64,000 nt of DNA from assembly GCA_963719515.1 (NCBI GenBank), contig CAVRCJ010000016.1:1-64000 (forward strand), in the 5' to 3' direction. Each line of letters starts with the position of its first letter. Position 1 is the stretch's first letter. The notes under the pieces are model-generated. The model was not told the origin of the DNA. It saw only the letters and a list, made by a program, of their open reading frames with translations, and searched no databases. The stretch comes from an uncultured cyanobacterium (lineage in GTDB: Bacteria > Cyanobacteriota > Cyanobacteriia > CAKZMO01). Shown here one piece after another: positions 1 through 52,799 of the stretch. The translations under genes and the position numbers were made by a program.

Positions 1-40
1 AGCCAAGCCATGTTAGCTACTAGACAGGAAGCCCCGCGCT

Positions 41-223
41 CTACCCGTCAGGGTGAGCGTCGGGATGAGAGTCGCGGTCGTCGATGGGGCTCAATGCCCC
101 GGAGACGGCCAAACTTCGGATGTACTCCCTAAGGACATCGTTGATAGTTCTTTCGGTCATCTCACAATACTTGTCAAGATGCTGCTTTTCTCTGTCAGCG
201 GCTCTAATAGTTATTTGCTGCAT
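41..223 (-). CDS. Small ribbon-helix-helix (CopG-like) protein inside the IS
   Basis: MQQITIRAADREKQHLDKYCEMTERTINDVLREYIRSL has a beta-alpha-alpha pattern; divergent from tnpB where tnpA usually sits. Confidence 0.65.
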   Translation of the reverse strand: MQQITIRAADREKQHLDKYCEMTERTINDVLREYIRSLAVSGALSPIDDRDSHPDAHPDG

Positions 224-256
224 GTCGTTCTGATGTCAATATGCTATCATTATTGC

Positions 257-1453
257 ATGAAAGTCACCCATCAGTACAGGTTACGCCCAACGGCTGAGCA
301 AACGGTTACCATGACCCGATGGCTAGATATGCTTCGGGCACAGTACAACTGGTTGCTGGCTGAGCGCTTCGACTGGTGGGAGATGAACCGCTGTTCGGTC
401 AACGCCTGCCCACTCACCTGTAGCCTTGCGCCACTCAAAGATAATCCTAATTACTACAGCCAGAAGGCTAGCCTAGTACCTCTCAAGCGAGAGCGACCCT
501 GGTACAAAGATTTGCACTCACAAGCGCTTCAGGAGGTGACGAAGCAGGTAAAGCAGACGTTCGAGCGTTTCATCAAAGGTGATAAAAACGGTAAGCGTAG
601 CGGCAAGCCTCGGTTCAAAGGCGCGGGGCGCTACAGGACGTTCACGTTCCCGCAGATGAAACCTGACTGCATCGATGGAAGTCGTATTACCCTGCCTAAG
701 ATTGGCCAGGTGAAGCTAATCCTTCATCGCCCGATACCTGATGGGTTTACTGTCAAAACGGCCAAGGTGACTCGCAAAGCAGATGGTTGGTATGTGAGCC
801 TGTTACTGGAAAACAATGCCGTTCCGATGCTTACTCCGGATGTCGATAGGGCTAAGTCTGTCGGTGTTGATGTTGGGCTGAAGGATTTCTTGGTTACCAG
901 TGACGGTGAGAGCGTTCCTATCCCTCAGTTCTTTCGACGCTCAGAGCGGCAGCTATCCAAGCTGCAGCGGCAGCTATCGAGACAGAAGAAGGGCTCTAAC
1001 CGCTGGCGTAAGCAGGTGAATCGCATCGCCAAACTACACCTAAAGATATCGCGTCAGCGTCGTGATTTCTTTTCTAAGGTGTGGGATTGGCTGTTCTCAA
1101 AGTACGATGTTGTCGCTCATGAAAAGCTCAACATCAAAGGACTTGCTCGAACCAGACTGGCAAAGTCAATCGCTGATGCCGCATGGGGTACATTCTTGGA
1201 GATAGGCTCTTTCAAAGCCGCGAAAGCTGGAAAGATGACCATCGCTGAGAACCCACGCGGAACCAGCATTGATTGCTCGGGTTGTGGTGAGCGGGTACCA
1301 AAGACGCTGGCCGATCGGGTCCATAGTTGCCCGTCATGCGGCTTAACGATCTGTCGCGACCACAACGCGGCTATCAACCTATTGAATAGGGCTGTGGGAC
1401 ATCAAGCCCTTAATCTCTCAGGAAATGTCTCAGCGGTAGCTGGGAGTCACTGA
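257..1453 (+). CDS. tnpB: RNA-guided endonuclease TnpB
   Basis: N-terminal MKVTHQYRLRPT HTH, RuvC-I GVDVGLK, RuvC-II AHEKLNI, zinc finger CSGC..CPSC, RuvC-III RDHNAAINL. Start set at ATG 257, just after TGcTATCAT. Confidence 0.95.
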   Translation: MKVTHQYRLRPTAEQTVTMTRWLDMLRAQYNWLLAERFDWWEMNRCSVNACPLTCSLAPLKDNPNYYSQKASLVPLKRERPWYKDLHSQALQEVTKQVKQTFERFIKGDKNGKRSGKPRFKGAGRYRTFTFPQMKPDCIDGSRITLPKIGQVKLILHRPIPDGFTVKTAKVTRKADGWYVSLLLENNAVPMLTPDVDRAKSVGVDVGLKDFLVTSDGESVPIPQFFRRSERQLSKLQRQLSRQKKGSNRWRKQVNRIAKLHLKISRQRRDFFSKVWDWLFSKYDVVAHEKLNIKGLARTRLAKSIADAAWGTFLEIGSFKAAKAGKMTIAENPRGTSIDCSGCGERVPKTLADRVHSCPSCGLTICRDHNAAINLLNRAVGHQALNLSGNVSAVAGSH

Positions 1454-1499
1454 GGAAGCCCGCGCTGTATGCGTAGCATCAGCGTCGGGAGGATGTCAC

Positions 1500-2041
1500 C
1501 AACCGCCGCCAGGGCAAACTGGCTCCAAGCATCCGGGCCAACCGGCAGCTTAAATTACGGGTGGCGAAAGAGCTAGCCGCTATCCTGCCCATCTCCGTTT
1601 GTCAGCCACGAATCGTTCCGAACTAAAAACACTCACGGCAAAGTCTGGACCGGCAGCGTTGCTATCACCGATTGCCTGTTTAAGATCATTCGTCGTCCGC
1701 CTATCTGCCGCCGCCAACTTCACCTACTGCAGCCCGCCAAGGGTGGGAAGCGTCGCGCCTACGGCGGCACCGTCACCCGGCATGGCTATCGGAAGGGCGA
1801 CATGGTCCATGCGGTTCACGCTGGCCGTGAGTGCATCGGGTGGGTGTCTGGCGATACCGCTCGGCAAGTGTCTGTTTCCGATATCAATTGGAAACGAATA
1901 GCGCAGTTTGCCGCTTCAAAAGTGCGGCTGATTAAGCGCAGTACTGGGCTGCTGATTTCGGGGGCATCGTTGGCGCAGCCTGCGCACAGCACACACCCCA
2001 CTCAGTCAGCCCTCCTATCCCTCCCTAATCCGCTTCGCTGA
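1500..2041 (+). pseudogene. IsrB/IscB-like (RRXRR family) OMEGA protein remnant, interrupted by the tnpB element and internally deleted
   Basis: Bases 1-16 plus 1500 onward read SNRRQGKLAPSIRANRQLKLRVAKELAAILPIS. After a frame jump near 1597: IRRPPICRRQLHLLQPAKGGKRRAYGGTVTRHGYRKGD..IGWVSGDTARQVSVSDINWKRI, typical of cyanobacterial RRXRR proteins. Downstream hairpin CCCTAATC/GATTAGGG (2023-2049) and ATGA (2066-2069) resemble an element end. Confidence 0.75.
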
Positions 2042-2072
2042 GATTAGGGTATCCCCGAGAAAAAGATGAACC

Positions 2073-2114
2073 GCTGGAGGAAGAGAGCCGCTTGAGAAAG
2101 CCTCTTCCTCCAGC
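2073..2114 (-). terminator. Stem-loop downstream of msrA
   Basis: GCTGGAGGAAGAG ... CTCTTCCTCCAGC inverted repeat just past the msrA stop. Confidence 0.5.
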
Positions 2115-2138
2115 CCCATTCTGTTGGTAGCGACCAGC

Positions 2139-2801
2139 TTAACCGTGCTCAACCGCCAGTCCTACCGGGCAAGCGACCCCAGTTCCCCCCAATCCACAGT
2201 ATCCGCCTGGATTTTTTGCGAGATACTGCTGGTGGTAATCTTCAGCAAAATAAAACTCAGGAGCCTCCAAAATTTCAGTCGTGATGCCGCCATGACCTGC
2301 TGCATTCAGCTGCTCTTGGTAGGCCGCCTTGGACGTCTCGGCAAGCTGACGCTGCTCGTCTGAATAAGTGTAGATGCCTGAGCGGTACTGAGTTCCTGTA
2401 TCATTGCCCTGACGCATGCCTTGGGTCGGATTGTGGCTTTCCCAAAAGACTTTGAGCAATTCAGCGTAGCTGATAACGCCGGGGTCAAAGACGACGAGCA
2501 CCACTTCGTTGTGGCCCGTTGCCCCGGAGCAGACTTCCCGGTACGTCGGATTAGGCGTATAGCCTGCCGCATAGCCTACTGCAGTGGTGTAGACGCCCTC
2601 TTGCTGCCAAAAGCAGCGCTCTGCGCCCCAGAAGCAGCCTAGCCCAAACACCGCCGTCTCCATGCCGTCGGGATAGGGAGGCTTTAGGGGTTTTCCATTC
2701 ACAAAGTGCTTATCTGGCACGGGCATTGCTGCTTCGCGTCCGGGGAGCGCTTTTTCTGGAGTGGGCATTTCCGCTTTTTTCCCGAGTCCAAAGAGTGCCA
2801 T
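2139..2801 (-). CDS. msrA: Peptide-methionine (S)-S-oxide reductase
   Basis: GCFWGAE active site, AEDYHQQYL motif. Confidence 0.97.
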
Positions 2802-2892
2802 TTAAAGTGTTCCTGCTAAATTGAACGTCTGTATTCCGTACGGTGCTGTCGAACCATTGTCCCTATTTTAAAGGGCTGTCGTTTCTACCACA

Positions 2893-3341
2893 GTGACATA
2901 CTCCCGACGCTCATCTTTTAGATGGAGCGCGGGCTTCTTGGCTCACGCACCACAATTTAATGGATGCCGCGCAAGAAGGTTTCCTGCTTCATCTGGTCCT
3001 GTCTAGTTACGCAGCAAGCCGTGCAACCCCGATTAGATCCCATCGACAGGCGATTTGTTTAATGTCCAGGCAATGACCAACCCCAGACAGTGACGAGTAT
3101 TCAATTTCCAGCTACGTTTTCTACCGTCTGCACTGTTCACCAGCCAAGGGCTGTACGTTTGTGTCAGGATAGCAGGCCGCCGCCACGAAATAGTTTGAGC
3201 TTGGTTCAATTGTACCCTTTGCTCGCCTCGGCGCTGCCCTTAATTGCCGCCTTCGGCATCCAGTCAAGGGCGCACCTCGACTCGCTCGCTTACATCCCGA
3301 CGCTGATGCTGCGCATACAGCGCGGGGCTTTCACGAACTAG
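2893..3341 (-). mobile_element. Non-autonomous IS605-type element (449 bp, type 2)
   Basis: Minus strand: TTAG target (3342-3345), AAGC-CCCGCGCT..AGCGTCGGG left hairpin, GAAG-CCCGCGCT..AGCGTCGGG..TCAC right end. No credible ORF; internal TACAAT (3209-3214). Confidence 0.85.
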
Positions 3342-3463
3342 CTAAAAGTTTGTGGCGGATATCTGTTATCAATCGTTAGGAAAACCCTACCGATCGCCTT
3401 GTTAAGGGCGTTCTAGGTTGAGAGCGTTCTAGAATGTTGCGTCTGCTAATCCAGCCTACCGCC

Positions 3464-5635
3464 TCACACCGTCGCCCGCTCGCCATTGCTGGCGTGGGGC
3501 GTCAAGGCATCGGCAGACTTCCACGTAAAGGAAAACGTGGCCCCAGCGCCGACGTCAGACTCAACCCAAATCTTTCCCCCCTCCGCCCGCACGAGCCGCT
3601 TCACGATGGCCAGCCCAATGCCGGTGCTGACCACCGTACCCGTCTCTAGCACGGTAGACTGATTCGACTGCAGGGTTTCGAAGACGCCGAAGATTTTGGC
3701 CTGGTCGGCAGGGGCAATCCCTGGCCCTTTGTCGGCGATCGCAAACCGGTAGCCGTCGAGCTGCTCCCAGGCTGAAATCGTAATTTCGCCCTGCCCCTTC
3801 ACGCAGCCGTATTTGATGGCATTGCTGATCAGATTGGCAAACACCTGGCTGAGCATCACCCGCCTCACCTGAAAAGTCGGCAGCTTCGTGGCGACTCGAA
3901 TTACGATGCCGGGGGGTACCGTCAAGATACTGACCACCTCCCGCACTAGTTCAGCTACGTCAACGCGCTCAGGGGGCTGCTTCACCCGTCCGGCCCGGGA
4001 ATAGTCCAGCAGGTCGTTGATTAACGTCTCCATCAGGGTGACCCGGTTTCCCAACAGCCTGAGCTGATTTTGGTTATCGGGTGGGATGATGTCACCGAGG
4101 TCTTCCTGCAGCCATTGAGATAAATTGTGAATACCGCGTAGGGGAGCCTTGAGGTCATGGGAGACGACATAGGCAAATTGATTGAGGTCTTTGTTTCTTT
4201 GATCGAGATCTGCTGTGATGGTCTTGAGGACGTGATTGAGCCGGGTCAGCTCTTGCGCCCGGTATGCCAGAGCTTCCTCGACCCGCTTCCGCTCGGTGAC
4301 GTTGAGGGTGATGCCCGTCATGCGAGTAGGGTGCCCCCCGCTGCTGTAAAGGGTCTGGCCGATAACCGTCAGCCAGCGGATACCGCCGGTTGGATGCAAG
4401 ATCCGAAATTCGACGTTGAGTCCGACTCTTTTTTCTAGAGCGTTGAAAATGGCCTGGTTGACGCGAACGCGATCGGGCTTCAAGACGGAAGCCAGCCAGC
4501 TCTCATAGGAAAGAATTTCTGAGGCGTCAAGGCCGTGAAGCCGGTAGCACTCTTCTGACCAGGTAATTGTATTGTTGAGCAGGTTCCAGTCCCAAAGGCC
4601 TGCGCCTGCGGCCCGCTGAGCGAGGCGCAGGCGCTCTTCGCTCTCTCTCAGTTCAGCTTCAACGCGACCCCGTTCAGCGATTTCCGTTTGCGCCTGCCGG
4701 TAGAGCTCTGCCTGCTGGAGCGCAATGCCAACTTGAGTCGCGATATCTTGAAGCAGCTCAACTTCCAAAGGCTTCCACTGCCGGGGGGCTGCGCAGTGAT
4801 GAACAATCAGCATTCCCCACAAATCGCCTTTTTGTAGAATGGGCACCACCAGGTTGGCCTGCACCTGCAGTTTGTCTAGCAGCTCAACGTGGCAGGCATC
4901 TAAATTGCCGTCATGGATGTCAGAGCGAAGGACAGCCTGTCCTTGGCGAAAGGGTTCTACGTGGCTTTCTTCCAGGCAGGGGTCGTAAAAATCATGCGTT
5001 AGCGTTGCGAGCCATCCATCACCCGCAGATTCAGTGACTACTGTCCCTTCTCCGTTGGGATGGAGGCGAAACAGCAGGACGCGGTCGGTCTGCAAGAACT
5101 GACGAACCTCGGTGACGGTAGTCTGCAAAAGGCTCTCTAGATCCAGAGTTTGATGAATCTTGCGGGTGATTTCTGAAACCAGCTGCTCGCGCTCGATTCG
5201 CTGCTGCAGCTGGGCGCGGAGCTGCACCGTTGAAATGGCGCTATCAACCGCTACATGCAGCCCCTCTGCGGTAATTCTGCCCTTGACGAGGTAGTCTTGC
5301 GCCCCCGCCTTCATGGCCTTAACCGCGATCGCCTCGTTGCCTTGCCCCGTCACCATAATCACCGGAAAGGCGGGGCTTTGCGGTGAGCAAAAGTAAGGCT
5401 GCTGTGGCAAACATTCTAGGCGGGCCAAAAACTCTAGCCCATCGAAATCGGGGAGGCAATAGTCCAACAAAATCACGTCCGGGTGGTGCTGCTGCCACAG
5501 CTCTAGACCTTGCTCCCCCATTGTTGCCTCAATCAGCACGTAGTCGTGATCGGGGTCGCGCTCCAGGTACCTTCGGTAGAGTTCTCTATCTTCCGGAGAA
5601 TCGTCGACGACAAGTACAGTGCGTGGTAAAGACAT
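3464..5635 (-). CDS. Hybrid sensor kinase REC-GAF-PAS-HisKA-HATPase
   Basis: VLVVDD/ILLD receiver, GAF with DPC and CH residues (cyanobacteriochrome-like), PAS WDW, SHDLKAPL H-box, G boxes. Confidence 0.9.
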   Translation of the reverse strand: MSLPRTVLVVDDSPEDRELYRRYLERDPDHDYVLIEATMGEQGLELWQQHHPDVILLDYCLPDFDGLEFLARLECLPQQPYFCSPQSPAFPVIMVTGQGNEAIAVKAMKAGAQDYLVKGRITAEGLHVAVDSAISTVQLRAQLQQRIEREQLVSEITRKIHQTLDLESLLQTTVTEVRQFLQTDRVLLFRLHPNGEGTVVTESAGDGWLATLTHDFYDPCLEESHVEPFRQGQAVLRSDIHDGNLDACHVELLDKLQVQANLVVPILQKGDLWGMLIVHHCAAPRQWKPLEVELLQDIATQVGIALQQAELYRQAQTEIAERGRVEAELRESEERLRLAQRAAGAGLWDWNLLNNTITWSEECYRLHGLDASEILSYESWLASVLKPDRVRVNQAIFNALEKRVGLNVEFRILHPTGGIRWLTVIGQTLYSSGGHPTRMTGITLNVTERKRVEEALAYRAQELTRLNHVLKTITADLDQRNKDLNQFAYVVSHDLKAPLRGIHNLSQWLQEDLGDIIPPDNQNQLRLLGNRVTLMETLINDLLDYSRAGRVKQPPERVDVAELVREVVSILTVPPGIVIRVATKLPTFQVRRVMLSQVFANLISNAIKYGCVKGQGEITISAWEQLDGYRFAIADKGPGIAPADQAKIFGVFETLQSNQSTVLETGTVVSTGIGLAIVKRLVRAEGGKIWVESDVGAGATFSFTWKSADALTPHASNGERATV

Positions 5636-5637
5636 GA

Positions 5638-6108
5638 CTAATCCTGGACGAGACTGGGAAGCGTCGTAACCCCAAACCAATAATGCACCAGCGTTTGGAT
5701 ATCCTGCTTCAGCTGCGCAAAGTCGATGGGCTTGATGATGTAGCTGTTGACGCCATACCGGTAGCAGTCCTCTACATCTTTGGGGTTGTTGGAGGTCGTA
5801 AACACCACAACGGGGATGGTTTTGAGCGCCTCATCCTGCTTGATCTGGTGCAGCACCTGTCTGCCGTCAGTTCGAGGGAGATTGAGATCAAGCATAATCA
5901 TACCGGGGCGGGGAGCGCTGCTCTCCCGGTAAACCCCGGTATGGTAGAGAAATTCTAGGGCTTCTTCTCCGTTGACGCACCGAAAGATGGGGACAGCGAT
6001 CGCAGACCTACGCAGCAGACGGCAGACCGTTTCAAAGTCCTCGTTGCTGTCTTCTACAATCAACATTGGGGCCGTCACCTTGGGGGGCAACGCTAACGTA
6101 GAGCTCAT
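5638..6108 (-). CDS. rcpB: Phytochrome-associated single-domain response regulator (Rcp type)
   Basis: LIVEDS..MLDLNLP..VNSYIIKP..YWF; ATGA overlap with the phytochrome stop. Confidence 0.85.
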   Translation of the reverse strand: MSSTLALPPKVTAPMLIVEDSNEDFETVCRLLRRSAIAVPIFRCVNGEEALEFLYHTGVYRESSAPRPGMIMLDLNLPRTDGRQVLHQIKQDEALKTIPVVVFTTSNNPKDVEDCYRYGVNSYIIKPIDFAQLKQDIQTLVHYWFGVTTLPSLVQD

Positions 6109-8414
6109 GCGATCGCCTCTTCCATCAAGGTAAAGTAAAACGTACTGCCGTGGCCGGGGGCCGATTCTACCCAAAGTTTGCCGCCGTGCCTTTCTACTAT
6201 CTTACGAGCAATGGTAAGACCTGCCCCAGTGCCTCCGCCAAAGCTATCCCGCTCGTGTAGACGGTGAAAAATCTGAAAGATCCTGTCGAAGTACTTGGGG
6301 GATATTCCAATGCCGTTGTCTCGCACGTAGAAAATCTGCGCTGCCCCTGACCGGTCTACCTTTGGCGGTATACAGACCTCTCCTGATGAACTGACGTAGC
6401 CAATCTCAATCCACGGGTCGGCTTTATCATTATATTTGATCGCATTGCTGATTAAGTTGGTGAACAGCTCGCTGGCCTGGGCGCGATCGCAGCTCACCGC
6501 TGGCAGCGGTCTTGGAATCCGAAACTCGACGTTGTGGGGACGAGAGATATCGAGCATCGCGGTTGCCTGCCGGACGAGTAAGCCGAGGTCTACGGGCTCG
6601 CGAATCAGCGCATCTCGTCCCAAACGGGAAAAATAGAGGAGCGAATTGAGCAGCTCCTCCATACGCTGGGCAAGCCGCACTATTGTCTGCAGCTTCCTCA
6701 CCCCGTCTTGGTCCAGCTGGTCTTCGTAGTCCTCCATTAAGAAGTTGGCGTAGTTGTGAATCCCACGCAGCGGCTCTTTAAGATCATGAGAGGCAACGTA
6801 GGCAAAGGAGTCCAGCTCGTCATTGCTCCGCTGCAGCTCAGAGTTAACGGAGGCGATTTCGTCCGCCTGTCGCAGCACGATACCTACAATTAAGTTCCGT
6901 AGCTCAATGACGGCGTTGGTTTCAGCCAGCCGCCAAGGCAGAGAGCGGCCACGCACCGTCTCCTGCCAGCGCTCAAACGACTTGCGAGGCCTGAGGTCGA
7001 GGCTGCCGTCGGAGAGAACCTCGCCGGACTTGTTGGGGTCTCCGCCCCAGCTTACGGTGTGAACCACTTCGGGGCGAAACCAAAGAACGTAGTTGTGGTG
7101 AACTCGGGAAATCTCTAGGGCCAGAACTCCGCTAGCGATCGCCTGGAACGATTCTGCTGGCGGATAGCGCTTAGGGAGCGATCGCGTCTCGAATAGGTTC
7201 TGTAGCTGCGGTTTAATCCACTTCAGTAGCGCTGAGAGCTGATCATCCGTTGGAACATCCCCGACTTTGACGCAATGGCTCCCGCTATAGACCACGGCTC
7301 CCGATGCGTTGACCAAATCCAGCAGCTTGAGGTCGAGCTGTTGGATCCCCTCAAGAAAGTAATCTGCTTGAGAAAGGGCATCGACAAATTCGGTCTGCAG
7401 CGACGCCAATCGCCTTCGGTAATCGGCATCTTGGCTAGCTTCTTTATTGACCAGCTCTGCAGACATCACCTGACCTATAAACTGGCAGGCCGTACGCGTG
7501 CTGTAGGGGATGTACTTGGGCGATAGGTGATGGCAGGCAATTAGGCCCCACAGCGTTTGACCCCGCATCAGGGAGATAGACATAGACGCCGTGACGCCCA
7601 TGTTTTGGAGATATTCTAGGTGCAGCGGGGACACGCTGCGCAGCACGGCGTGGCTGAGGTCTAAAGGCAGGGCGGGGGTTGATGGGGAAGCGGTTAGGCC
7701 AACGGGCTGGTAGCTGACGTCTGGAATCAATCGGAGCCAGTTGAGGGTATAGAGATGGCGCGCCTGCTGGGGGATATCTGAGGCGGGGTAATGTAGCCCC
7801 AGGTAAGACGAGTCTTGGTCTGTCGCTTCGGCCACAACGCTCCCAGCGTAGTCTGGGTCAAACTGGTAGACCATGACGCGGTCAAAGCCGGTAATGCGGC
7901 GGATATCTTGGACTACGATTTGGCACATCTCCGAGGGCGTCGAAGACCTCTGAAGACGGGTTACCGTTCCGTGAACCTGGTGGTAAAACTCGGAAAAGCT
8001 CCCCTGCTCTGGCTCTATCTGGGACTCCAGCTCCAGAAGCACAAAGGCGTCGTTTGGGTGGACAATGCCATCGAAATGAACCGTCTTGGAATTTACCTGA
8101 ACCGAGATCTTCAGAGAATTGATGCGCTCAAACTCTTGGGTCAAGCAGCCCTGGATCTCCTCGACCTGGTCAGCGCCAATCAGCGCTGATAGCGGTTGCC
8201 CCAGCAGCGCCTGCGGCTGGCGCGCCAGCAAATGAGCAACGTTGTTGCTCACCTGGGCAATCGTTAAGTCCGCGCGCTCTAAGACCAGTAGAGCGCCGTG
8301 GGGCTGGATTAATCCAGGCACGTGAATGGGTTCGCGATCGCAGTTGGTCAAGTTTGCCGCTTCAACGGGCGGTTCGATCGCTTGCTGAGCCTCTGGCATG
8401 GGTGACTTTACCAT
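6105..8414 (-). CDS. cphB: Bacteriophytochrome-type PAS-GAF-PHY histidine kinase (CphB/AphB class)
   Basis: N-terminal NCDREPIH Cys, PASDIP, SPLH (Leu at the Cph1 chromophore Cys position), PRKSF tongue, SHDLKEPL. Confidence 0.88.
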   Translation of the reverse strand: MVKSPMPEAQQAIEPPVEAANLTNCDREPIHVPGLIQPHGALLVLERADLTIAQVSNNVAHLLARQPQALLGQPLSALIGADQVEEIQGCLTQEFERINSLKISVQVNSKTVHFDGIVHPNDAFVLLELESQIEPEQGSFSEFYHQVHGTVTRLQRSSTPSEMCQIVVQDIRRITGFDRVMVYQFDPDYAGSVVAEATDQDSSYLGLHYPASDIPQQARHLYTLNWLRLIPDVSYQPVGLTASPSTPALPLDLSHAVLRSVSPLHLEYLQNMGVTASMSISLMRGQTLWGLIACHHLSPKYIPYSTRTACQFIGQVMSAELVNKEASQDADYRRRLASLQTEFVDALSQADYFLEGIQQLDLKLLDLVNASGAVVYSGSHCVKVGDVPTDDQLSALLKWIKPQLQNLFETRSLPKRYPPAESFQAIASGVLALEISRVHHNYVLWFRPEVVHTVSWGGDPNKSGEVLSDGSLDLRPRKSFERWQETVRGRSLPWRLAETNAVIELRNLIVGIVLRQADEIASVNSELQRSNDELDSFAYVASHDLKEPLRGIHNYANFLMEDYEDQLDQDGVRKLQTIVRLAQRMEELLNSLLYFSRLGRDALIREPVDLGLLVRQATAMLDISRPHNVEFRIPRPLPAVSCDRAQASELFTNLISNAIKYNDKADPWIEIGYVSSSGEVCIPPKVDRSGAAQIFYVRDNGIGISPKYFDRIFQIFHRLHERDSFGGGTGAGLTIARKIVERHGGKLWVESAPGHGSTFYFTLMEEAIA

Positions 8415-8494
8415 ACAGGTTGAGGGACAAACAGACGGGTTGCCCTAGTCTACGGCAACGCTCCACTCTCATTATGTCCCAAAGCCACGGTGTC

Positions 8495-8886
8495 GTGACA
8501 TCCTCCCGACGCTGACAGCGAGCTGTACAGCGCGGGCTTCCTCAGTGACTCCCAGCTATTGCCGAGACATATCCTGAGATAGGTTTATACTCCGCCTGAT
8601 GCCCCACGGCAGAGTTTTGAATTTTCATCTCCGCGAGGGAGGATACGCACTATGTGTCGCAGATACATTTGCAAACTGAGGAACGGGTGACTTGCAGCTT
8701 TCGCCTACGGGCCCGTCACACTCTTTGCGGGGTGTATCACCTTGCTATCTCTATCATACCAACTGCTAGCCTCAGCGCTGAGCGCACTATCCGCTGTGCA
8801 TCATTTTGCGGGCGCACTTCGGCTAGCGCGACTCTCATCCCGACGCTCACCCTGACGGGTAGAGCGCGGGGCTTCCTGTCTAGTAG
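8495..8886 (-). mobile_element. Non-autonomous IS605 derivative, 392 bp (copy A)
   Basis: First 60 nt identical to the left end at 17-76; last ~110 nt homologous to the tnpB 3' end/right end; TTAG target at 8887-8890; nearly identical to copies B and C. Confidence 0.92.
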
Positions 8887-9040
8887 CTAAAGGCTTGTCC
8901 TGGTTTCTACAGTACAGATATTCTAGTTTGAAGGTCACCCGTTCAGCATTAGTACCGCGCCAGCGTAGTTTACAGAAGACGTCGTAAAGCCCACTCCTTT
9001 AGGGGTGGGCTATAAGGCGGCGAGCCAGAGGCGAGCAATC

Positions 9041-9439
9041 CTATCGGCTCTTCTGCTCTTTCACATATCTTCTAATCATGTCACCTGAGACATTGCCAGC
9101 AGTTGATACGAAATATGAGCGAGTCCACAGACTAGGCAATCTACGCTTTAGCTCTGGAAATTCTTTCCGCAGCGCATGAGAGGTGAAACCCTTAATTTTG
9201 TGCATCACCTGATATGGAGCAATGCGCGGGTGAGCATTTAGAAACAGATGCACATGGTCATAGTGAGTTTCTAGGGCTATGACCTCACAGTCAATCTCTT
9301 TAGCGGCTTGATAGACCAAGTCTTTCAATCGATTGTCTAGCGGACCGGTGAGCAGCTTCCGCCTACGCCTGACTATCCAGACAAAGTGATAGTTGAGCAT
9401 GGAAACAGAGGTGCTGTCTTGTCGATAATCTTGCCCCAT
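9041..9439 (-). CDS. tnpA: IS200-like Y1 (HUH) transposase
   Basis: NYHFVW, DHVHLF HUH motif, LWTRSYFVST, YVKEQ catalytic Tyr. Confidence 0.95.
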   Translation of the reverse strand: MGQDYRQDSTSVSMLNYHFVWIVRRRRKLLTGPLDNRLKDLVYQAAKEIDCEVIALETHYDHVHLFLNAHPRIAPYQVMHKIKGFTSHALRKEFPELKRRLPSLWTRSYFVSTAGNVSGDMIRRYVKEQKSR

Positions 9440-9481
9440 AGCACTGCCATAATGGTCTATGACTATGCTAACATAGACCAC

Positions 9482-10606
9482 ATGAAGACGTTGAAGTTCA
9501 AGCTATACGAGCATAAGCGGAACCGACACCTAAAGCGCACTATTAATGCTGCTGGGGTGATCTCGAACCACTGTATCGCCCTCCACAAACGGTACTACCG
9601 CATGTGGAGTAAGCACCTCAATGGCTCAAAGCTTCAGTCTCATATTGCCAAGTTGCGTAAGCGCAATCCGTTTTGGCAGCTGGTGGGGTCTCAGGCGGTG
9701 CAAGACATCTGCCAGCAAATTGAGAAGGCGTACCAATTGTTCTTTGAGTATCACGGCAAAGGCTACAGGCCGCTCAGCTTTCAGAAGGTGAGGCGATACA
9801 AGTCTTTCACCCTGAAGCAAGCGGGCTACAAGCTGTTGAATGGTGGCCGCATTAAGGTAGGGGACAGAGTCTACCAGTATTGGAATTCACGAGAGGTCGA
9901 GGGCAAGGTGAAGACCATCATGGTAAAACGCACCCCCCTAGGTGAGCTGTTTTTAACCCTTGTGGTGGACCAAGAAACCGAGCTAAGCCCTGGTGTCGAG
10001 ACGGGTAAAACCGCTGGCGCTGATTTTAGACTGAAGACGTTTCTCACTCTGTCCGATGGTGCTCAGATCAAATCCCCTGAGTTTCTGAAAGCTGCTCTGA
10101 AGGAACTGCGTTGCGCCAACCGCAACCTATCGCGCAAGCGGAAAGGTTCAGCTAATTGGCATAAGGCGCGGCTACAGCTAGCTCGCTGCCACGAGGTCAT
10201 AGCCAATCGGCGGCGGGACTGGTTCTGGAAGCTTGCCCATCAGTTGACCGACACCTACGACGCGCTCTACTTTGAGACGTTGAACCTGAAGGGAATGAAG
10301 AGGCTATGGGGCCGGAAGATATCGGACTTGGCTTTAGCTGAATTCCTCGAAATCCTTCAGTGGGTCGCGAAGAAAAAAGGCAAGCTCGTAGCGTTCATTG
10401 ACCAGTGGTATCCCAGTTCGAAGACCTGTTCATGCTGCGGGCATGTCTTAAAAGAGTTGGACCTGAAGCAGCGAGAGTGGGATTGTCCCGCCTGCGGGGC
10501 TCACCACGAGCGGGACCTAAACGCTGCAATAAATATTCAACGGGCTGGGGCGTCAACCTGTGGGCTAGATGAGGTAAGACAGTCTCAGCCTGCACTTGTT
10601 GTCTGA
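9482..10606 (+). CDS. tnpB: TnpB endonuclease
   Basis: MKTLKFKLY start, ADFRLKT (RuvC-I), FETLNL (RuvC-II), CSCC..CPAC zinc finger, RDLNAAINI. Confidence 0.92.
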   Translation: MKTLKFKLYEHKRNRHLKRTINAAGVISNHCIALHKRYYRMWSKHLNGSKLQSHIAKLRKRNPFWQLVGSQAVQDICQQIEKAYQLFFEYHGKGYRPLSFQKVRRYKSFTLKQAGYKLLNGGRIKVGDRVYQYWNSREVEGKVKTIMVKRTPLGELFLTLVVDQETELSPGVETGKTAGADFRLKTFLTLSDGAQIKSPEFLKAALKELRCANRNLSRKRKGSANWHKARLQLARCHEVIANRRRDWFWKLAHQLTDTYDALYFETLNLKGMKRLWGRKISDLALAEFLEILQWVAKKKGKLVAFIDQWYPSSKTCSCCGHVLKELDLKQREWDCPACGAHHERDLNAAINIQRAGASTCGLDEVRQSQPALVV

Positions 10607-16893: not shown

Positions 16894-16940
16894 TGGTAGA
16901 TGCACCCTGATTAAACCCTGGCTCCGGCTAGGGTTTTTTT
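16894..16940 (+). ncRNA. nsiR1: NsiR1-like small RNA, copy 1
   Basis: Starts TGGTAGATGCACCCTGAT (matches the NsiR1 5' end as I recall it); ends in hairpin CCCTGGC-tccg-GCTAGGG plus T7. Confidence 0.65.
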
Positions 16941-16998
16941 GTTTTCTGCCCCAGCCCCAGTCGCTTTTCAATATTGGCCCAGTAAAAGATTGCTCCTT

Positions 16999-17032: not shown

Positions 17033-17079
17033 TGGTAGATGCACCCTGATTAAACCCTGGCTCCGGCTAGGGTTTTTTT
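17033..17079 (+). ncRNA. nsiR1: NsiR1-like small RNA, copy 2
   Basis: Identical to copy 1; direct repeat with 139-bp period. Confidence 0.65.
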
Positions 17080-17132
17080 GTTTACCCCAGCCCTTTTATG
17101 GAAGACCCATCACGGCCCGTCGCCGGCCCCTG

Positions 17133-25750: not shown

Positions 25751-26142
25751 GTGACATCCTCCCGACGCTGACAGCAAGCTGTACAGCGCGGGCTTCCTCA
25801 GTGACTCCCAGCTATTGCCGAGACATATCCTGAGATAGGTTTATACTCCGCCTGATGCCCCACGGCAGAGTTTTGAATTTTCATCTCCGCGAGGGAGGAT
25901 ACGCACTATGTGTCGCAGATACATTTGCAAACTGAGGAACGGGTGACTTGTAGCTTTCGCCTACGGGCCCGTCACACTCTTTGCGGGGTGCATCACCTTG
26001 CTATCTCTATCATACCAACTGCTAGCCTCAGCGCTGAGCGCACTATCCGCTGTGCATCATTTTGCGGGCGCACTTCGGCTAGCGCGACTCTCATCCCGAC
26101 GCTCACCCTGACGGGTAGAGCGCGGGGCTTCCTGTCTAGTAG
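25751..26142 (-). mobile_element. Non-autonomous IS605 derivative, 392 bp (copy B)
   Basis: About 3 substitutions from copy A; TTAG at 26143-26146; TCAC right end. Confidence 0.92.
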
Positions 26143-26204
26143 CTAAACTGGGAACTGCTAACGTCCTGCAGCCCTCGCCGCAGCAACGCCTCCATGACGC
26201 CTCT

Positions 26205-40413: not shown

Positions 40414-40805
40414 GTGACATCCTCCCGACGCTGACAGCAAGCTGTACAGCGCGGGCTTCCTCAGTGACTCCCAGCTATTGCCGGGACATATCCTGAGATA
40501 GGTTTATACTCCGCCTGATGCCCCACGGCAGAGTTTTGAATTTTCATCTCCGCGAGGGAGGATACGCACTATGTGTCGCAGATACATTTGCAAACTGAGG
40601 AACGGGTGACTTGCAGCTTTCGCCTACGGGCCCGTCACACTCTTTGCGGGGTGTATCACCTTGCTATCTCTATCATACCAACTGCTAGCCTCAGCGCTGA
40701 GCGCACTATCGGCTGTGCATCATTTTGCGGGCGCACTTCGGCTAGCGCGACTCTCATCCCGACGCTCACCCTGACGGGTAGAGCGCGGGGCTTCCCGTCT
40801 AGTCG
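40414..40805 (-). mobile_element. Non-autonomous IS605 derivative, 392 bp (copy C)
   Basis: About 5 substitutions from copy A; TTAG at 40806-40809; TCAC right end. Confidence 0.92.
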
Positions 40806-40820
40806 CTAAAATCGGGCGGG

Positions 40821-44817: not shown

Positions 44818-45267
44818 GTTCTCCCCCTTAGCTTTGGCGTTAGCCTGCCCGCAGGGCGTAGGGGAGCTAGAGGGGGTAATCAGAACGTGGGGCGATCGCT
44901 CATATTATGGACGAATGTAGCACCTCTTGATTTACCCCCCTTAGTCCCCCCTTGCTAAGGGGGGAAACTGTGAACTCTTAATTCTGTAATCGCTCTATAC
45001 CCCTCTTTCCCTTCACTATTGAGCCTTCGACATCCAAAGTCATGGTCTTCCAAAATGAGGATATTGTGGTTCTCCCCTGCGTGCTAAGGACACGCTTCGC
45101 GAAAAGCAAGGGGGAGCTAGAGGGGGTAAATCAAAACGTGGCGCGATCGCCAGGTCTTGGCTGCGTCGGTACGTCTTGCTTACCCCCCTTAGTCCCCCCT
45201 TGCCAAGGGGGGAAACTGTGAATTCTTATTTCTGTAATCTCTCTATGTCCCTCTTTCCCTCACTATT
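44818..45267. repeat. Two tandem ~200-bp units (period ~250 bp), each an inverted pair of CCCCCTT..AAGGGGG REP-like palindromes around a HIP1 site
   Basis: 44818-45020 and 45069-45267 share GGGGAGCTAGAGGGGGTAA..GCGATCGC..TTACCCCCCTTAGTCCCCCCTTGCYAAGGGGGGAAACTGTGAA..CACTATT. Confidence 0.85.
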
Positions 45268-45279
45268 AAATTCTCAAGC

Positions 45280-45556
45280 TCCAACGACGAAGCTTTTTGC
45301 TTCAGCGGCGAGGCTCTGGGCCTGAACAGTCAGGCTTTTTGCTCGGGCGATGAGGTTCTGAACTCCAATGACGAAGCTTTGAGCTCGGATGATGAAGCTT
45401 TTTACCTGAGCAAAGAAGTCCTGAGCTTCAGCGGTGAGGCTTTTTGCTCGGGCGGTGAGGTTCTGAACTCGGGCGATGGGGCTTTCTACTTCGGCAGCGA
45501 GGTGTTGAGCGTTGACGGCGATCGCTTGAGCGTCAACGGTGAGGTGGTTTGCTTTT
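45280..45556 (+). repeat. Degenerate 21-bp tandem repeat array (~13 units)
   Basis: Translates stop-free as heptads SNDEAFC FSGEALG LNSQAFC SGDEVLN SNDEALS SDDEAFY LSKEVLS FSGEAFC SGGEVLN... Confidence 0.75.
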
Positions 45557-48500
45557 ATTGAGAGTCATTGTGGTCAACTGCTCCCATCAATTTTAGTGTT
45601 GTCTGCTGTCCTGCTTTCAGGCCTTTAGCTCCAGAAATATTCGCTCCTGAACATGCCCGCTCGTCAATCACTCGCAAGCATTCGCCTGTTTCTACATCCC
45701 ACACTCGAATCGTCTCGTCTGAGCTACTAGAGACAATTTGAGCATTGTCAGGACTGAAAGCCATAGACCACACTCCACCCAAATGCCCCTCAAATGTGCG
45801 TATGCATTTTCCCGAAATTATAGACCATATCTTTAGCGTACGATCAAAGCTACCAGAAGCGATTGATGTGCCATTGTGGCTGAAGGCCAGAGACCATACC
45901 CGGCTTGAGTGACCTTGCAAGGTGCGTATGCATTCTCCTGATTTAATAGACCACAGCTTTACAGTATTGTCATCACTGCTAGAGGCTAATGTCATACCAT
46001 CAGGACTGAAGACTACAGAGCTAACCGAATCCAAATGGCCCTTGAGGGTGCGTATACATTTCCCTGATTCAATGGACCACAGTTTTACAGTGTTGTCTCT
46101 GCTGCCAGAAGCTAATGTTATGTCATCAGGGCAGAAGGTCACAGATCTAACTGCGTCCGAATGTCCTCTAAAGGTACGGATACAGTTACCTGACCTAACA
46201 GACCATAGCTCTAGCAAGTTATCAGAGCTACTAGAGGCAAGTAAGCTACCATCAATGCTAAAAGCTAGAGACGTGACCCAGTTCGAGTGGCTTTGAAAGG
46301 TTTGGATACATTCGCCTGACTTGACAGCCCACAGCTTCAGCGTGCCATCAGAACTGCTAGAGGCAAGTAACCTACCATCAATGCTAAAAGCTAGAGACAT
46401 GACCCAGTTCAAGTGGCCTTCAAAAGTGCGGATACACTTCCCGTTCCCAATGGACCACAACTTCAATGTACTGTCAGAGCTACCCAAGGCAAATTTCGTA
46501 CTATCAGGGTTGAAGACCACGGACAAAGTCCTATTTGAGTGACCTTGTAAGGTGCGGATACATTTTCCTGATTCTACAGACCACGTCTTCAGCGTGCTGT
46601 CAGAACTGCCTGAGACAAGTGCTTTACCATCAAGGCTGAAGACTACACACCTAACCCAATTTAAGTGCCCCTCCAGACTGTGGATGCAATCTCCCGATTC
46701 AACAGACCATAGCCTTATCGTCTTGTCAGAACCACCAGAGGCAATTTTTGTACCATCAGGACTGAAAGCTATGGACCAAATCCAATCTGAATAGTCATTA
46801 AGGGTACGAGTACATCGCTCAGATAACACATCCCACAACTTCAACACACTGTCAGAACTACTGGAGGCAAGTGTTGTGCCATTCGGGGCAAAAACCACAG
46901 ATAAAATACCGCTTGAGTGTCCCTCAAAGGTGCGGATGCACTCTCCTGATTCTACGGACCAGAGCTTCACCGTCCCGTCAAGACTGCCGGATGCGATTGT
47001 TTTACCATTGGGGCTAAAAACTACAGATCTAACTGCACCTGTATGTCCCTCGAAGGTGCAAATGCACTGCCCTGAATCTATGGAACATAGCTTCACGGTC
47101 TTGTCAGAACTACCAGAAGCGATTGTTCTACCGCTAGGGCTGAAGGCCACCGACCAAACTAAACCTGAATGGCCTCTTAAGGTACGGATACATTTCCCAG
47201 ACTCGACAGACCATAACTTCACGGTCTTATCAGAGCTGCTGGAGGCGAACACCATGCTGTCAGAATTGAAAGCTACTGAACTAACTGCATCCAAGTGGCC
47301 TAGGCAGGATAAGATTGCTTGGCCTGTTTCAACATCCCAAATTTGTACCGTTGTTTTACTGTCTCCGATGGCGAAGTAATTTCCATCAGGGCTCAATGCT
47401 GCTGAATTAATGCTACCGACAATCTTGGAAAAGACTGCTTCCAAAAACGTCGCTCCCTGTAGATCGACACAACGCAAAAATGCTCTACTGAAATCAACAC
47501 CTTTGAGTTTAGTGCAGCTAAAATCACACCCCTCCAACGCATGCGCCGATCGCCCCAACATCAGCTGCACTACATTCCCGCCAAAATACCCCACATCCTC
47601 CAACGATCGCCCCCGTGTCTCCCAGACCAAAGGCAAGAGCCGCTCCCGCATCGTCTCCGCGTCTAGCATCGGCGAAGCCAAATCCAGCACCGCCCGCGCC
47701 AGCTTCGCATCTCGCAGCAGCGGCAGCAACTCCTCATATGCCATCGCCCGAAACTGATCCAAAGGCGCGATCGCCTCCACCGCCCCATCAGTCCCCAGCG
47801 ATCGCCGAAAATACCCTTCCCAGGTATACTCCTGTGCAGGCAGCGCCTCATTCACCCCCGACTGCTCCCGCGCTACGGCCACAAAATCCTCCGCCATCGC
47901 CCCCAGCGACGCCACAATCTTATAGGCCACAAAAAACTCCAGCAGCGATCGATGCGCCGGGCTGTAATCCCCCTCCGAATTGCGAATCAGCATCGTCTGG
48001 CCCATCATGTCGTAGCGCCAGTGGTCCAGCTCCTTCTCCTCCCGCACCCGCTCGTCAAACATCTGCTGCAGCCGCATCCGGAAAGGCCCGATAATTCAGA
48101 CTCATCTGGTCCGTCGACAACATCTCCCACGACAGCTCACACAAAAAGTAGAGCTTATCCGCCAAAGAGGTGAACGTGCGATCGCTCTTGATATCCCGGT
48201 CCATTTTCTGGGTCACCGCATACAGATAGACCCGCGCCATATCCACCGGCTTCCCCGCCTCAATCTCCGGCAGCGCCTCCAAAATCAGGTCCACCATCAC
48301 CGGACGCCGCGCCAAGTCCAGCAATTGCGGGTTATCCGTCACCTTGGCCACCGTCTCCGGCTTGGCTTTATGTCCCAGCAGTTCCCCAATCTGCTCATCG
48401 CTAAACTTCGCCAGCTCCAGCACCTCAAACTGGGGCGGCTCCCCCGTCAGGTTAGCGGTGGAGGCCTTCAGCTCCGCTCCCAGCAGCTTTCGCCCCTCAA

Positions 48501-51126: not shown

Positions 51127-52530
51127 TCACTGGGACTTGGGTTCGTAAAGAACGGTTCCGCGGCCTTTGCGCGCGGATGGCTTAGATACTGAGCTTTTCG
51201 GTCTCTCGTATAAAGGCTCTAGAGTACTTCTACCATAGCCAAAGTCACTGTCTTGGGCAGATTGATAGAACGAGTCCTTTTGGGGTTGGTAGTTCGTCTG
51301 ATACAGGGTCTTTTCAACGCCGTTATCAGATAAATTAGGCTCAGCATCCCCTTGGACAGGCTGGTAGAAATAGTCGCCACGGTGACCTAGTCCGAAATAG
51401 GGCTCGGCCTCAGCCTGGGGCATACCGTATGCCAAGGCTCCATTTGTGCTGGGCTGCAGTACTCCTGCCGCCTGGTAGGCTAGCCCAGGGCTATCGCTAA
51501 TCTCAATGTGACCGCGTCGCCAGTTCTCCAGCAGATTATTGATATCGAAGCCCACCGACCGTTGGAAATGCCACAGGCCACCCTGCAGGAAGAAAAAGGC
51601 TAAGTAGAAGTGCGCGTTTGCAAGCCAAACCCGGGAGGTATACCCGTCAGCCAGCGTGGGCTGCACCTCGTAGTAGCGGGGCAGTAATGATGACTGCAGC
51701 TGCAGGGTAGGGCCGTAGAACTTCTCGGGGTAGCTGAGCGAGTCGAAGCCGCAGTAGTAGGAGGCCGCAAAGCCGGCGATCGCAATGCCAAACAGCGAGT
51801 AGGACAAGATGCCGTCTCCCGAAAAGGAGAGAACCCGCTGCACCCAAGGGAAAGGGGGGACTAAAATATGCCAGACGCCGCCGATAAACAGCAAGCCAGC
51901 CACATAGATATGTCCGCCCACCAAGTCTTCTAGGCTACGGACGTCGAACAGATGGGTTCTGTAGTCCCAAATAGCCCCCGGATCGAGGGTGGGCGCGGTG
52001 ACCAGCCGCACTGAATCTGAGTAAGCGTCATACAGCCCTCCAAAGTACTGCGCCTTAACAACCAGCAGCAGCGCACCTAGACCTAAAAAGATAAGGTGGT
52101 GCCCCAAGATGAAGCCGAGTTTACCGGCATCCTGCCATTCAAAATCAAATTTCCGGGCTGTTTCAGGGGCGAGCGATAGGTCAGCCGGTAGCCGAGTGTA
52201 GTGGAAATAAGCCCCAGCCGCTAAGACGAGGGCCGCTACAAGGTGAATCGCCCCAATGGAGGACCAAACACCAGCGTCAACGATCGCGCCGTCTGGGCTG
52301 AGACCCCAGCCCTCAGTGGCGAGATGGGGCAGCAGAATCAGGCCTTGGGTGTAGAGCGGCGCATCAGGAGAATAGACGGCCAGCTCAAACAGGGTGTAAG
52401 CCCCGGCCCACAGCATGATTAGGGCTGCCTGGGCCACATGGGCCACGATAAAGGTGTTAGAGAGATGGATAAATCGGGCGTTTCCGGCCCACCAGGGGTA
52501 GCGCTCCTGGGTTTGATTGGAGACATACAT
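51127..52530 (-). CDS. isiX: IsiA/CP43-family chlorophyll-binding antenna with long C-terminal extension (IsiX)
   Basis: YPWWAGNARF, AHVAQAAL, GHHLIFLG, LEDLVGGH, WLANAHFYLAFFFLQG; ~130-aa soluble tail; downstream of apcD4-apcB3. Confidence 0.85.
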   Translation of the reverse strand: MYVSNQTQERYPWWAGNARFIHLSNTFIVAHVAQAALIMLWAGAYTLFELAVYSPDAPLYTQGLILLPHLATEGWGLSPDGAIVDAGVWSSIGAIHLVAALVLAAGAYFHYTRLPADLSLAPETARKFDFEWQDAGKLGFILGHHLIFLGLGALLLVVKAQYFGGLYDAYSDSVRLVTAPTLDPGAIWDYRTHLFDVRSLEDLVGGHIYVAGLLFIGGVWHILVPPFPWVQRVLSFSGDGILSYSLFGIAIAGFAASYYCGFDSLSYPEKFYGPTLQLQSSLLPRYYEVQPTLADGYTSRVWLANAHFYLAFFFLQGGLWHFQRSVGFDINNLLENWRRGHIEISDSPGLAYQAAGVLQPSTNGALAYGMPQAEAEPYFGLGHRGDYFYQPVQGDAEPNLSDNGVEKTLYQTNYQPQKDSFYQSAQDSDFGYGRSTLEPLYERPKSSVSKPSARKGRGTVLYEPKSQ

Positions 52531-52596: not shown

Positions 52597-52799
52597 AAGG
52601 ATGTTTGAAAAGTGTTGGTTAAAGCGTTATGCCACTGCTTCACCCCCCTTAATCCCCCTGCGCCCGTAGGACGCGCTGCGCGAAAGCCAAGGGGGGAAAT
52701 CATGGTTCTCCCCCTTGAGCTTTGGCGTTAGCCTGCCCGCAGGGCGTAGGGGAGCTAGAGGGGGTAATGTAGAACGTTTGCTACTTTTCAAACGTCCTC
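52597..52799. mobile_element. 203-bp MITE with IS5(IS1031)-like ends carrying a REP-like palindrome doublet
   Basis: TIRs AAGGATGTTTGAAAAGT / ACTTTTCAAACGTCCTC (15/17 match); TCA duplicated at 52594-52596 and 52800-52802. Confidence 0.78.

Follow-up and report, generated by a model that had tools for sequence, protein, structure and literature searches.

Three near-identical 392-nt elements in the window, the 64,000-nt stretch of cyanobacterial DNA analysed here, belong to a family of palindrome-associated transposable elements (PATEs) that is real, recently active and present in high copy number, and that has a scaffold for omega-RNA and, probably, its own promoter. We think it likely, short of firm confidence, that these repeats are a homogeneous family of protein-less IS200/IS605 (IS605-group) derivatives supplying omega-RNA in trans to TnpB. 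The window is part of contig C16 of a 5.28 Mb genome assembly in 21 contigs.

The copies in the window all lie on the minus strand, at 8495-8890 (copy A), 25751-26146 (copy B) and 40414-40809 (copy C), and are mutually 98.7-100% identical (blastn); B and C share 99.2% and 98.7% identity, respectively, with A. Each measures 396 nt with the TTAG at its edge and 392 nt without it. The original prediction of three near-identical 392-bp copies beside TTAG was borne out, and the ends it gave for B (element 25751-26142) and C (element 40414-40805) are correct when TTAG is counted as target and not as element. A genome-wide count, which it had proposed as a check, gave 53 full-length copies that are 95.96-100% identical and have flanks unique to each; there were no partial copies among the blastn matches in the genome. 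TTAG is found directly 5' of the element in all 53 copies, preceded by T in 47, so that the target or transposon-adjacent motif (TAM) reads TTTAG. In copy A this motif abuts the left end on its 5' side, outside the element (8887-8891, minus strand; TTAG, 8890-8887). It occurs on the left side only, and the 20 bases past the right end are unbiased across the 53 copies, showing that there is no target-site duplication.

According to crude longest-ORF calls, all 53 copies are intergenic. One copy outside the window (C6:428063-428458) sits inside a tnpB gene of another family, whose tblastn match is split at 428062/428491, and several copies are found within 100-400 nt of other PATEs. The positive-skew strand holds 25 of the 53 copies, a count that is uninformative about replication-strand bias because the GC skew is too weak (mean absolute value, 0.01). 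No open reading frame of the element is conserved between copies of different genomes, in agreement with the claim that it encodes no protein; the longest frame, of 89 codons on the bottom strand, is broken in the copy from a genome of the same genus (G002). No Rfam family matched any gene-less copy or tnpB 3' end (whole window, and 1-9500 at E up to 10). A match to the Rfam family Transposase-1 at 2822-2909, which adjoins another PATE, was rejected as weak (E 1.4) and not significant.

The element was matched somewhere in 13 of the 41 genomes searched (its own included), mostly at the ends only. G002 contains one full-length copy (93% identical overall), and the copy in G004 (86%) is cut by a contig end. 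A diverged copy in G008, from another genus, aligns only at the left end and at positions 275-396 (73% identity); this diverged element is single-copy, with no further copies in G008 or G012. Copy C is absent at the orthologous place in another genome (G003), between conserved flanks; about 75 nt beside the insertion have diverged there, leaving the exact pre-insertion joint unreadable. For copy B, the flanks in the compared genomes were split between contigs or had diverged too far.

The left end of copy A (8819-8886, minus strand) carries a subterminal hairpin at about 8870-8839 that recurs, directly oriented, at the right end. The latter consists of a hairpin (8536-8505) and the terminal GGAGGATGTCAC, together spanning 8495-8536 on the minus strand; the hairpin is presumed to bind TnpA and would also be part of the RNA. 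The two hairpins (element positions ~21-52 and 355-386) share the pattern GAAGCCC..GCGCT..AGCGTCGGGA in direct, not inverted, orientation. Terminal inverted repeats are absent and near-terminal palindromes are present at both ends, as the definition of PATEs demands.

Both ends resemble those of a tnpB element at the start of the window. The predicted left-end match of 60 nt extends in fact over 72 nt including TTAG, at 96% identity (window 13-84; blastn). The 3' segment had been called homologous to the tnpB 3' end, and rightly so: the right ends are 87% identical over 85 nt (blastn), that is, 11 of 85 positions differ, and the homology reaches about 115 nt by global alignment. The right-end hairpin of the gene-less element, GCTGTACAGCTTGCTGTCAGC, is unlike that of the resident tnpB element, being identical in two tnpB relatives (L044 and L048) and one mismatch away from a third (L057); it follows that the gene-less element stems from a lineage that is sister to the resident one.

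The resident partner is a tnpB-only element of 1483 nt (17-1499, plus strand; TTAG at 13-16), comprising a left end, a divergent ribbon-helix-helix-like ORF, tnpB (257-1453) and a right end. The encoded TnpB has 398 amino acids, contains the Pfam domains OrfB_IS605 (PF01385), Cas12f1-like_TNB (PF07282) and HTH_OrfB_IS605 (PF12323), and matches ISDra2 TnpB (8bf8/8exa/8h1j) with an E value of 3.8e-44. Asp205, Glu289 and Asp368 align opposite Asp191, Glu278 and Asp361 of ISDra2 TnpB, the last of which we take to be a residue of the RuvC catalytic triad. The substitutions D191A and E278A are reported to abolish interference by ISDra2 TnpB (PMC8612924). The resident TnpB is apparently intact, judging by its sequence.

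The genome contains 21 right ends of this tnpB element and 17 full-length tnpB frames, the latter counted as tblastn alignments to the resident TnpB at 97-100% identity; two of the resident tnpB copies share flanks and are not independent. The tnpB elements are inserted at the same (T)TTAG as the gene-less copies. Three of them (C10:312171-313974, C5:98444-100227 and C1:303800-305604) also carry a Y1 tnpA gene, with open frames of 163, 173 and 163 amino acids, respectively, placed divergently between the left end and tnpB; the genome has 14 PF01797 matches in total. The parent element can accordingly be assigned to the IS200/IS605 family, IS605 group, by its Y1 transposase and TnpB, fixed motif and aligned RuvC triad. 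Partners for use in trans, as had been postulated, are therefore available: 17 full-length tnpB frames and three tnpA genes next to this tnpB family.

The divergent ORF of the tnpB-only element (41-223, minus strand) encodes 60 amino acids and occupies, between the left end and tnpB, the slot that tnpA has in the autonomous copies. It looks ribbon-helix-helix-like by eye and has a weak match to DUF6290 (E 0.0036, below cut-off). There are 16 copies in the genome at 98-100% amino acid identity (tblastn), and 33 matches among 1.84 billion representative proteins; a homologue with 58% identity occupies the equivalent position ahead of a TnpB with 52% identity (L049). This ORF may regulate the tnpB element. 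This tnpB element occurs at each end of contig C16 (window 1-1510 and C16:70789-71618), the two copies being inverted relative to each other and sharing a 13-nt outer flank; the one at the far end is split by about 4 kb (70789/66770). The arrangement may be a repeat-assembly artefact or a real inverted duplication.

The last ~122 nt of the gene-less element, on the top strand directly inside the right end, are homologous to the 3' end and right end of the cognate tnpB element and comprise three stem-loops common to the 3' ends of tnpB relatives (43-81% amino acid identity, mostly from cyanobacterial MAGs). The 3' ends of the relatives that we fetched finish in GGGAG[G/T]ATGTCAC or a near variant. 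The 122-nt segment folds markedly better than expected, with a z-score of -4.31 and none of 200 shuffles as good. Stem-loop 1 (8590-8614, minus strand) has the stem CTCTGCC/GGCGGAG and the loop GTGGGGCATCA; both sides of the stem are altered relative to the tnpB genes, which have AGGGCC/GGCCCT, and the loop GTGGGrCATCA is kept. Stem-loop 2 (8537-8582, minus strand) has an outer helix, TCTCAG/CTGAGG, that does not vary and an inner helix that does. Stem-loop 3 is the hairpin also present in the left end. Covariation is seen in its inner stem, but is not specific for RNA, as this is presumably the DNA hairpin bound by TnpA.

Covariation analysis had been suggested as a check on the scaffold. RNAalifold, applied to eight tnpB 3' ends and three gene-less copies (our own and those of G002 and G008), gave 33 consensus pairs, and in 12 of these both sides have changed. 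We then ran over the whole genome a covariance model, R1, built from the eight tnpB 3' ends only. It detected every one of the 53 gene-less copies, with matches that span model positions 1-120 and score 94.1-102.6 bits (101.7 for copy B and 102.6 for copy C), in line with the expectation that the scaffold region is kept. The 21 tnpB ends, one of which was in the training set, scored 132.9-142.3 bits, and two other PATE families 48 and 37-39 bits. A metagenome scan with an 18-nt word from stem-loop 1 returned 51 loci, all of them chance hits: only 33 matched the consensus at all, and these over no more than 19-21 nt. Judged from the alignments, the compensatory changes mark the module as an omega-RNA-type scaffold and do not speak for its continued use. 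Relative to the resident tnpB's own scaffold, that of the gene-less element has an insertion between stem-loops 1 and 2 besides the 11 differences in 85 positions, which counts against its assumed compatibility with the resident TnpB.

Continued use is the point on which an alternative turns, namely that the element is an inert PATE, mobilised by TnpA, in which the scaffold and the -10-like motif discussed below are mere leftovers of a recently deleted tnpB and no functional RNA is made. The copies are 96-100% identical, suggestive of a recent burst, and their likeness may reflect youth and not selection. In the element, a remnant of the TnpB C-terminal reading frame (..AVGHQAEYKPISGYVSAIAGSH, compared with ..AVGHQALNLSGNVSAVAGSH in TnpB) has stayed open, so the compensatory changes in stem-loop 1 may date from a tnpB-coding ancestor. 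Moreover, bare-end PATEs of 52 bp appear to be mobile in Haloquadratum (PMC3119063), suggesting that a scaffold is unnecessary for mobility. Other observations fit this alternative poorly. The 53 copies have 38 variable columns, of which 31 fall in positions 1-220 and only seven in positions 221-396, which make up 44% of the length; positions 220-300 are invariant. Five of the seven sites lie at predicted pairs, and the changes keep the pair in three cases (two from U.G to C-G, one from C-G to U.G) and break it in two; these counts are small and the copies young. The region in common with tnpB elements also runs about 70 nt beyond the right-end hairpin, the presumed TnpA-binding site. The strongest sign of continued constraint on the scaffold comes, at the level of sequence comparison, from the G008 element, which can be aligned only at the left end and scaffold and yet carries the -10-like TGATATAAT at a similar place. 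We consider an inert PATE unlikely, and proceed with the reading that the family supplies omega-RNA to TnpB in trans.

The original prediction placed an internal extended -10 at 8761-8753 on the minus strand, some 250 nt from the end of the element. The position is right: the motif TGGTATGAT (8753-8761, minus strand) lies about 252 nt from the right end, with a predicted transcription start near 8746 and transcription directed towards the right end. Among the 53 copies, element positions 136 and 137 of the motif each vary in a single copy. The pattern TGnTAnnnT is kept in the three diverged copies, with the hexamer TATACT in G002, TATAAT in G004 and TGATATAAT in G008; the full motif reads TGCTATACT in the G002 copy and TGGTATAAT in the G004 copy, which at 93% and 86% overall identity are weak witnesses of promoter conservation. 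There is no recognisable -35 box ahead of the extended -10. A simple scan for -35/-10 consensus sequences did not flag the motif, its sole hit being on the opposite strand and not conserved. A 12-nt palindrome upstream of the -10, CTCAGCGCTGAG, was considered as an operator and dropped, as it is absent from the G002 and G004 copies. With the conserved extended -10 as the sole indication of transcription, the element probably has its own promoter.

Between the putative start and the scaffold lies a leader of obscure origin (8616-8746, minus strand). The middle of the element had been described as hairpin-rich, which we could not confirm: the 132-nt leader folds no better than shuffled sequences (z-score, -0.69; 46 of 200 shuffles as good). 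A blastn-short comparison of the middle (positions 61-315) with the loci of the tnpB relatives gave only chance matches of 11 nt. The 3' part of the leader aligns weakly to the tnpB 3' coding region and looks like a decayed remnant of the sequence coding for the zinc finger and RuvC-III.

An internal promoter could also make the element a mobile promoter, whose main effect would be read-through into the gene beside the right end. For 37 of the 53 copies, the nearest crude ORF on the right-end side runs in the direction of the element, and it frequently lies no more than 100 nt away; none of the copies is inside a crude ORF. Measured against an expectation of one half, this co-orientation has a p value of 0.005. 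Intergenic TTTAG sites, however, themselves point the same way as the ORF downstream of them in 1568 of 2608 cases (60%), and relative to this null the excess is not significant (p = 0.16). The underlying gene calls are crude, longest-ORF ones, and a mobile promoter leaves the retention of stem-loops 1 and 2 unexplained. We regard this possibility as decidedly improbable, more so than an inert element, and return to an RNA that acts through TnpB.

The TAM abuts the left end and the putative guide abuts the right end in 53 of 53 copies. For copy A, the 16-nt guide would be GACACCGTGGCTTTGG (8479-8494, minus strand), the flank directly abutting the right end; the guides quoted earlier for copies A, B and C are all correct. 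The 16 nt past each right end are unique to their locus in all 53 copies. If the RNAs are made, the family would thus provide 53 different guides, and it had been proposed that these form a dispersed library. Such a library would serve defence or regulation by sending TnpB to further sites on the chromosome, plasmids or phages. Searching the guides against their own genome with up to two mismatches produced 221 non-self matches, none of them exact and none following TTAG, so no guide has a second TAM-flanked target in this genome. A guide is simply whatever DNA happens to flank an insertion. The library proposal is not supported by these results, and we judge it the least probable of the alternatives, with very little in its favour. 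Each guide has just one predictable target, the TTTAG-plus-flank joint that scarless excision would leave at its own site, and this agrees with the omega-RNA reading, in which the guides serve retention at home. A homing and retention role of TnpB has been demonstrated by Meers et al. (PMC10055086).

We envisage the following cycle. The Y1 TnpA encoded by one of the three tnpA-tnpB copies would excise the element and insert it as single-stranded DNA; the 53 near-identical copies at unique sites and the lack of copy C at the orthologous place in G003 are indirect evidence of such mobilisation in trans. Transcription from the extended -10 promoter would cover about 250 nt, reading through both the scaffold and the right end into flanking DNA. 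TnpB from the tnpB elements would bind this RNA in trans, trim the leader and take 16-20 flanking nucleotides as guide for TAM-dependent cleavage. Excision by TnpA would rejoin the donor site as TTTAG plus guide, which would make it a substrate for cutting by TnpB, and repair from a chromosome copy still holding the element would restore the latter. The element would thereby exploit TnpA in order to move and TnpB in order to stay, encoding neither.

The window contains a copy of a second gene-less PATE family at 2893-3346 (minus strand; 454 nt including TTTAG), with 18 copies in the genome at 98% identity or higher. It has a -10-like TACAAT about 130 nt from the left end, and its scaffold is similar to the 3' ends found in another TnpB clade, which shares 37% identity with the TnpB at 257. 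A third family, elsewhere in the genome, is 426 nt long, has four copies at ~99% identity and two at 89%, and carries the extended -10 TGCTAGAAT. At least three PATE families are thus found in this genome, with 53, 18 and six copies, or 77 altogether. They match two TnpB clades, and ahead of the scaffold two of the three have an extended -10 and the third the plain TACAAT. One could imagine an RNA-only layer of hyperparasites on TnpB: the 77 PATEs outnumber the nuclease genes, their RNAs could dominate the TnpB pool and drive insertions to fixation in a polyploid host, and in the 392-nt family the promoter-bearing middle of ~200 nt would have been acquired de novo and not by simple deletion. 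We offer this as speculation and think it unlikely to hold.

Several other features of the window were recorded. Copy A is adjoined by a different IS605-type element (9041-10606). Its Y1 TnpA ORF occupies 9041-9481 on the minus strand (PF01797, E 4.3e-37); the TnpB ORF, at 9386-10606 on the plus strand, is oriented divergently and shares 33% identity with the TnpB at 257. Rfam matches above the gathering score are the IsrR antisense RNA at 51960-52137 (84.7 bits) and two NsiR1 RNAs at 16894-16942 and 17033-17081 (52.6 bits each), located in a perfect 84-nt direct repeat. A tandem repeat at 45784-47295 consists of eleven 126-nt units that are 63-75% identical, and adjoins repeats with 21/42-nt periodicity at 45277-45527. 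Dispersed repeats of 58 and 81 nt occur at 44823-45260 and 52711-52768.

The 392-nt family illustrates how little a transposon of this kind needs, namely two ends for TnpA, and a promoter and scaffold for TnpB. Such a minimal element supports a modular model of peel-and-paste transposition plus RNA-guided homing and leaves the known mechanism unchanged. It also offers a test system, consisting of a compact guide-RNA gene that stands alone, 53 natural guides with a single TAM (TTTAG), and a TnpB that appears to be intact, in which one can ask whether gene-less and tnpB elements compete for the nuclease.

The elements can be compared with several known systems. In ISDra2 (Karvelis et al. 2021, PMC8612924), as here, the guide RNA derives from the right end and its last 16 nt from the flanking DNA, cleavage occurs beside a 5-nt transposon-adjacent motif, and the RuvC residues are those kept in the resident TnpB. 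The motif differs, being TTGAT in ISDra2 and TTTAG in the present family, and the ISDra2 RNA is encoded together with tnpB, whereas the scaffold of the gene-less element stands alone. PATEs were defined in Haloquadratum walsbyi and other haloarchaea (Dyall-Smith et al. 2011, PMC3119063). They share with our family the lack of terminal inverted repeats and of target duplication, the near-terminal palindromes, a length too short for a transposase, IS605-type ends, homogeneous high-copy families and an origin by core deletion. That description concerns archaeal hosts and predates the discovery of omega-RNA; the parts of it compared here do not consider a promoter or RNA role.

The original prediction saw the own-promoter, multi-copy architecture as what stands out, a view that the literature does not support, as both PATE omega-RNAs for use in trans (PMC10055086) and mobilised stand-alone omega-RNAs (PMC10691335) have been published. 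Our literature search, confined to running text, found no description of this cyanobacterial family and no promoter analysis of PATEs. The stand-alone omega-RNAs of OMEGA systems (Altae-Tran et al. 2021, via PMC10691335) are mobilised and function in trans; like the elements described here, they have no effector or transposase of their own, with effector loci elsewhere in the genome. According to Meers et al. 2023 (PMC10055086), PATEs 'often encode omega-RNAs', which are necessarily used in trans. The PATE-like elements of Geobacillus stearothermophilus described there are likewise protein-less, have the left and right ends of resident tnpB or iscB elements, and are mobilised in trans. Compared with the elements as described in the running text of that paper, our family differs in its cyanobacterial host, in being far more numerous (53 copies, compared with 21 right ends of tnpB elements), and in having an extended -10 that is conserved as well as ~200 nt of internal sequence for which no parent could be detected. 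Thus, the principle of PATEs that encode omega-RNAs is already published, and the cyanobacterial family adds to it a clean, high-copy example.
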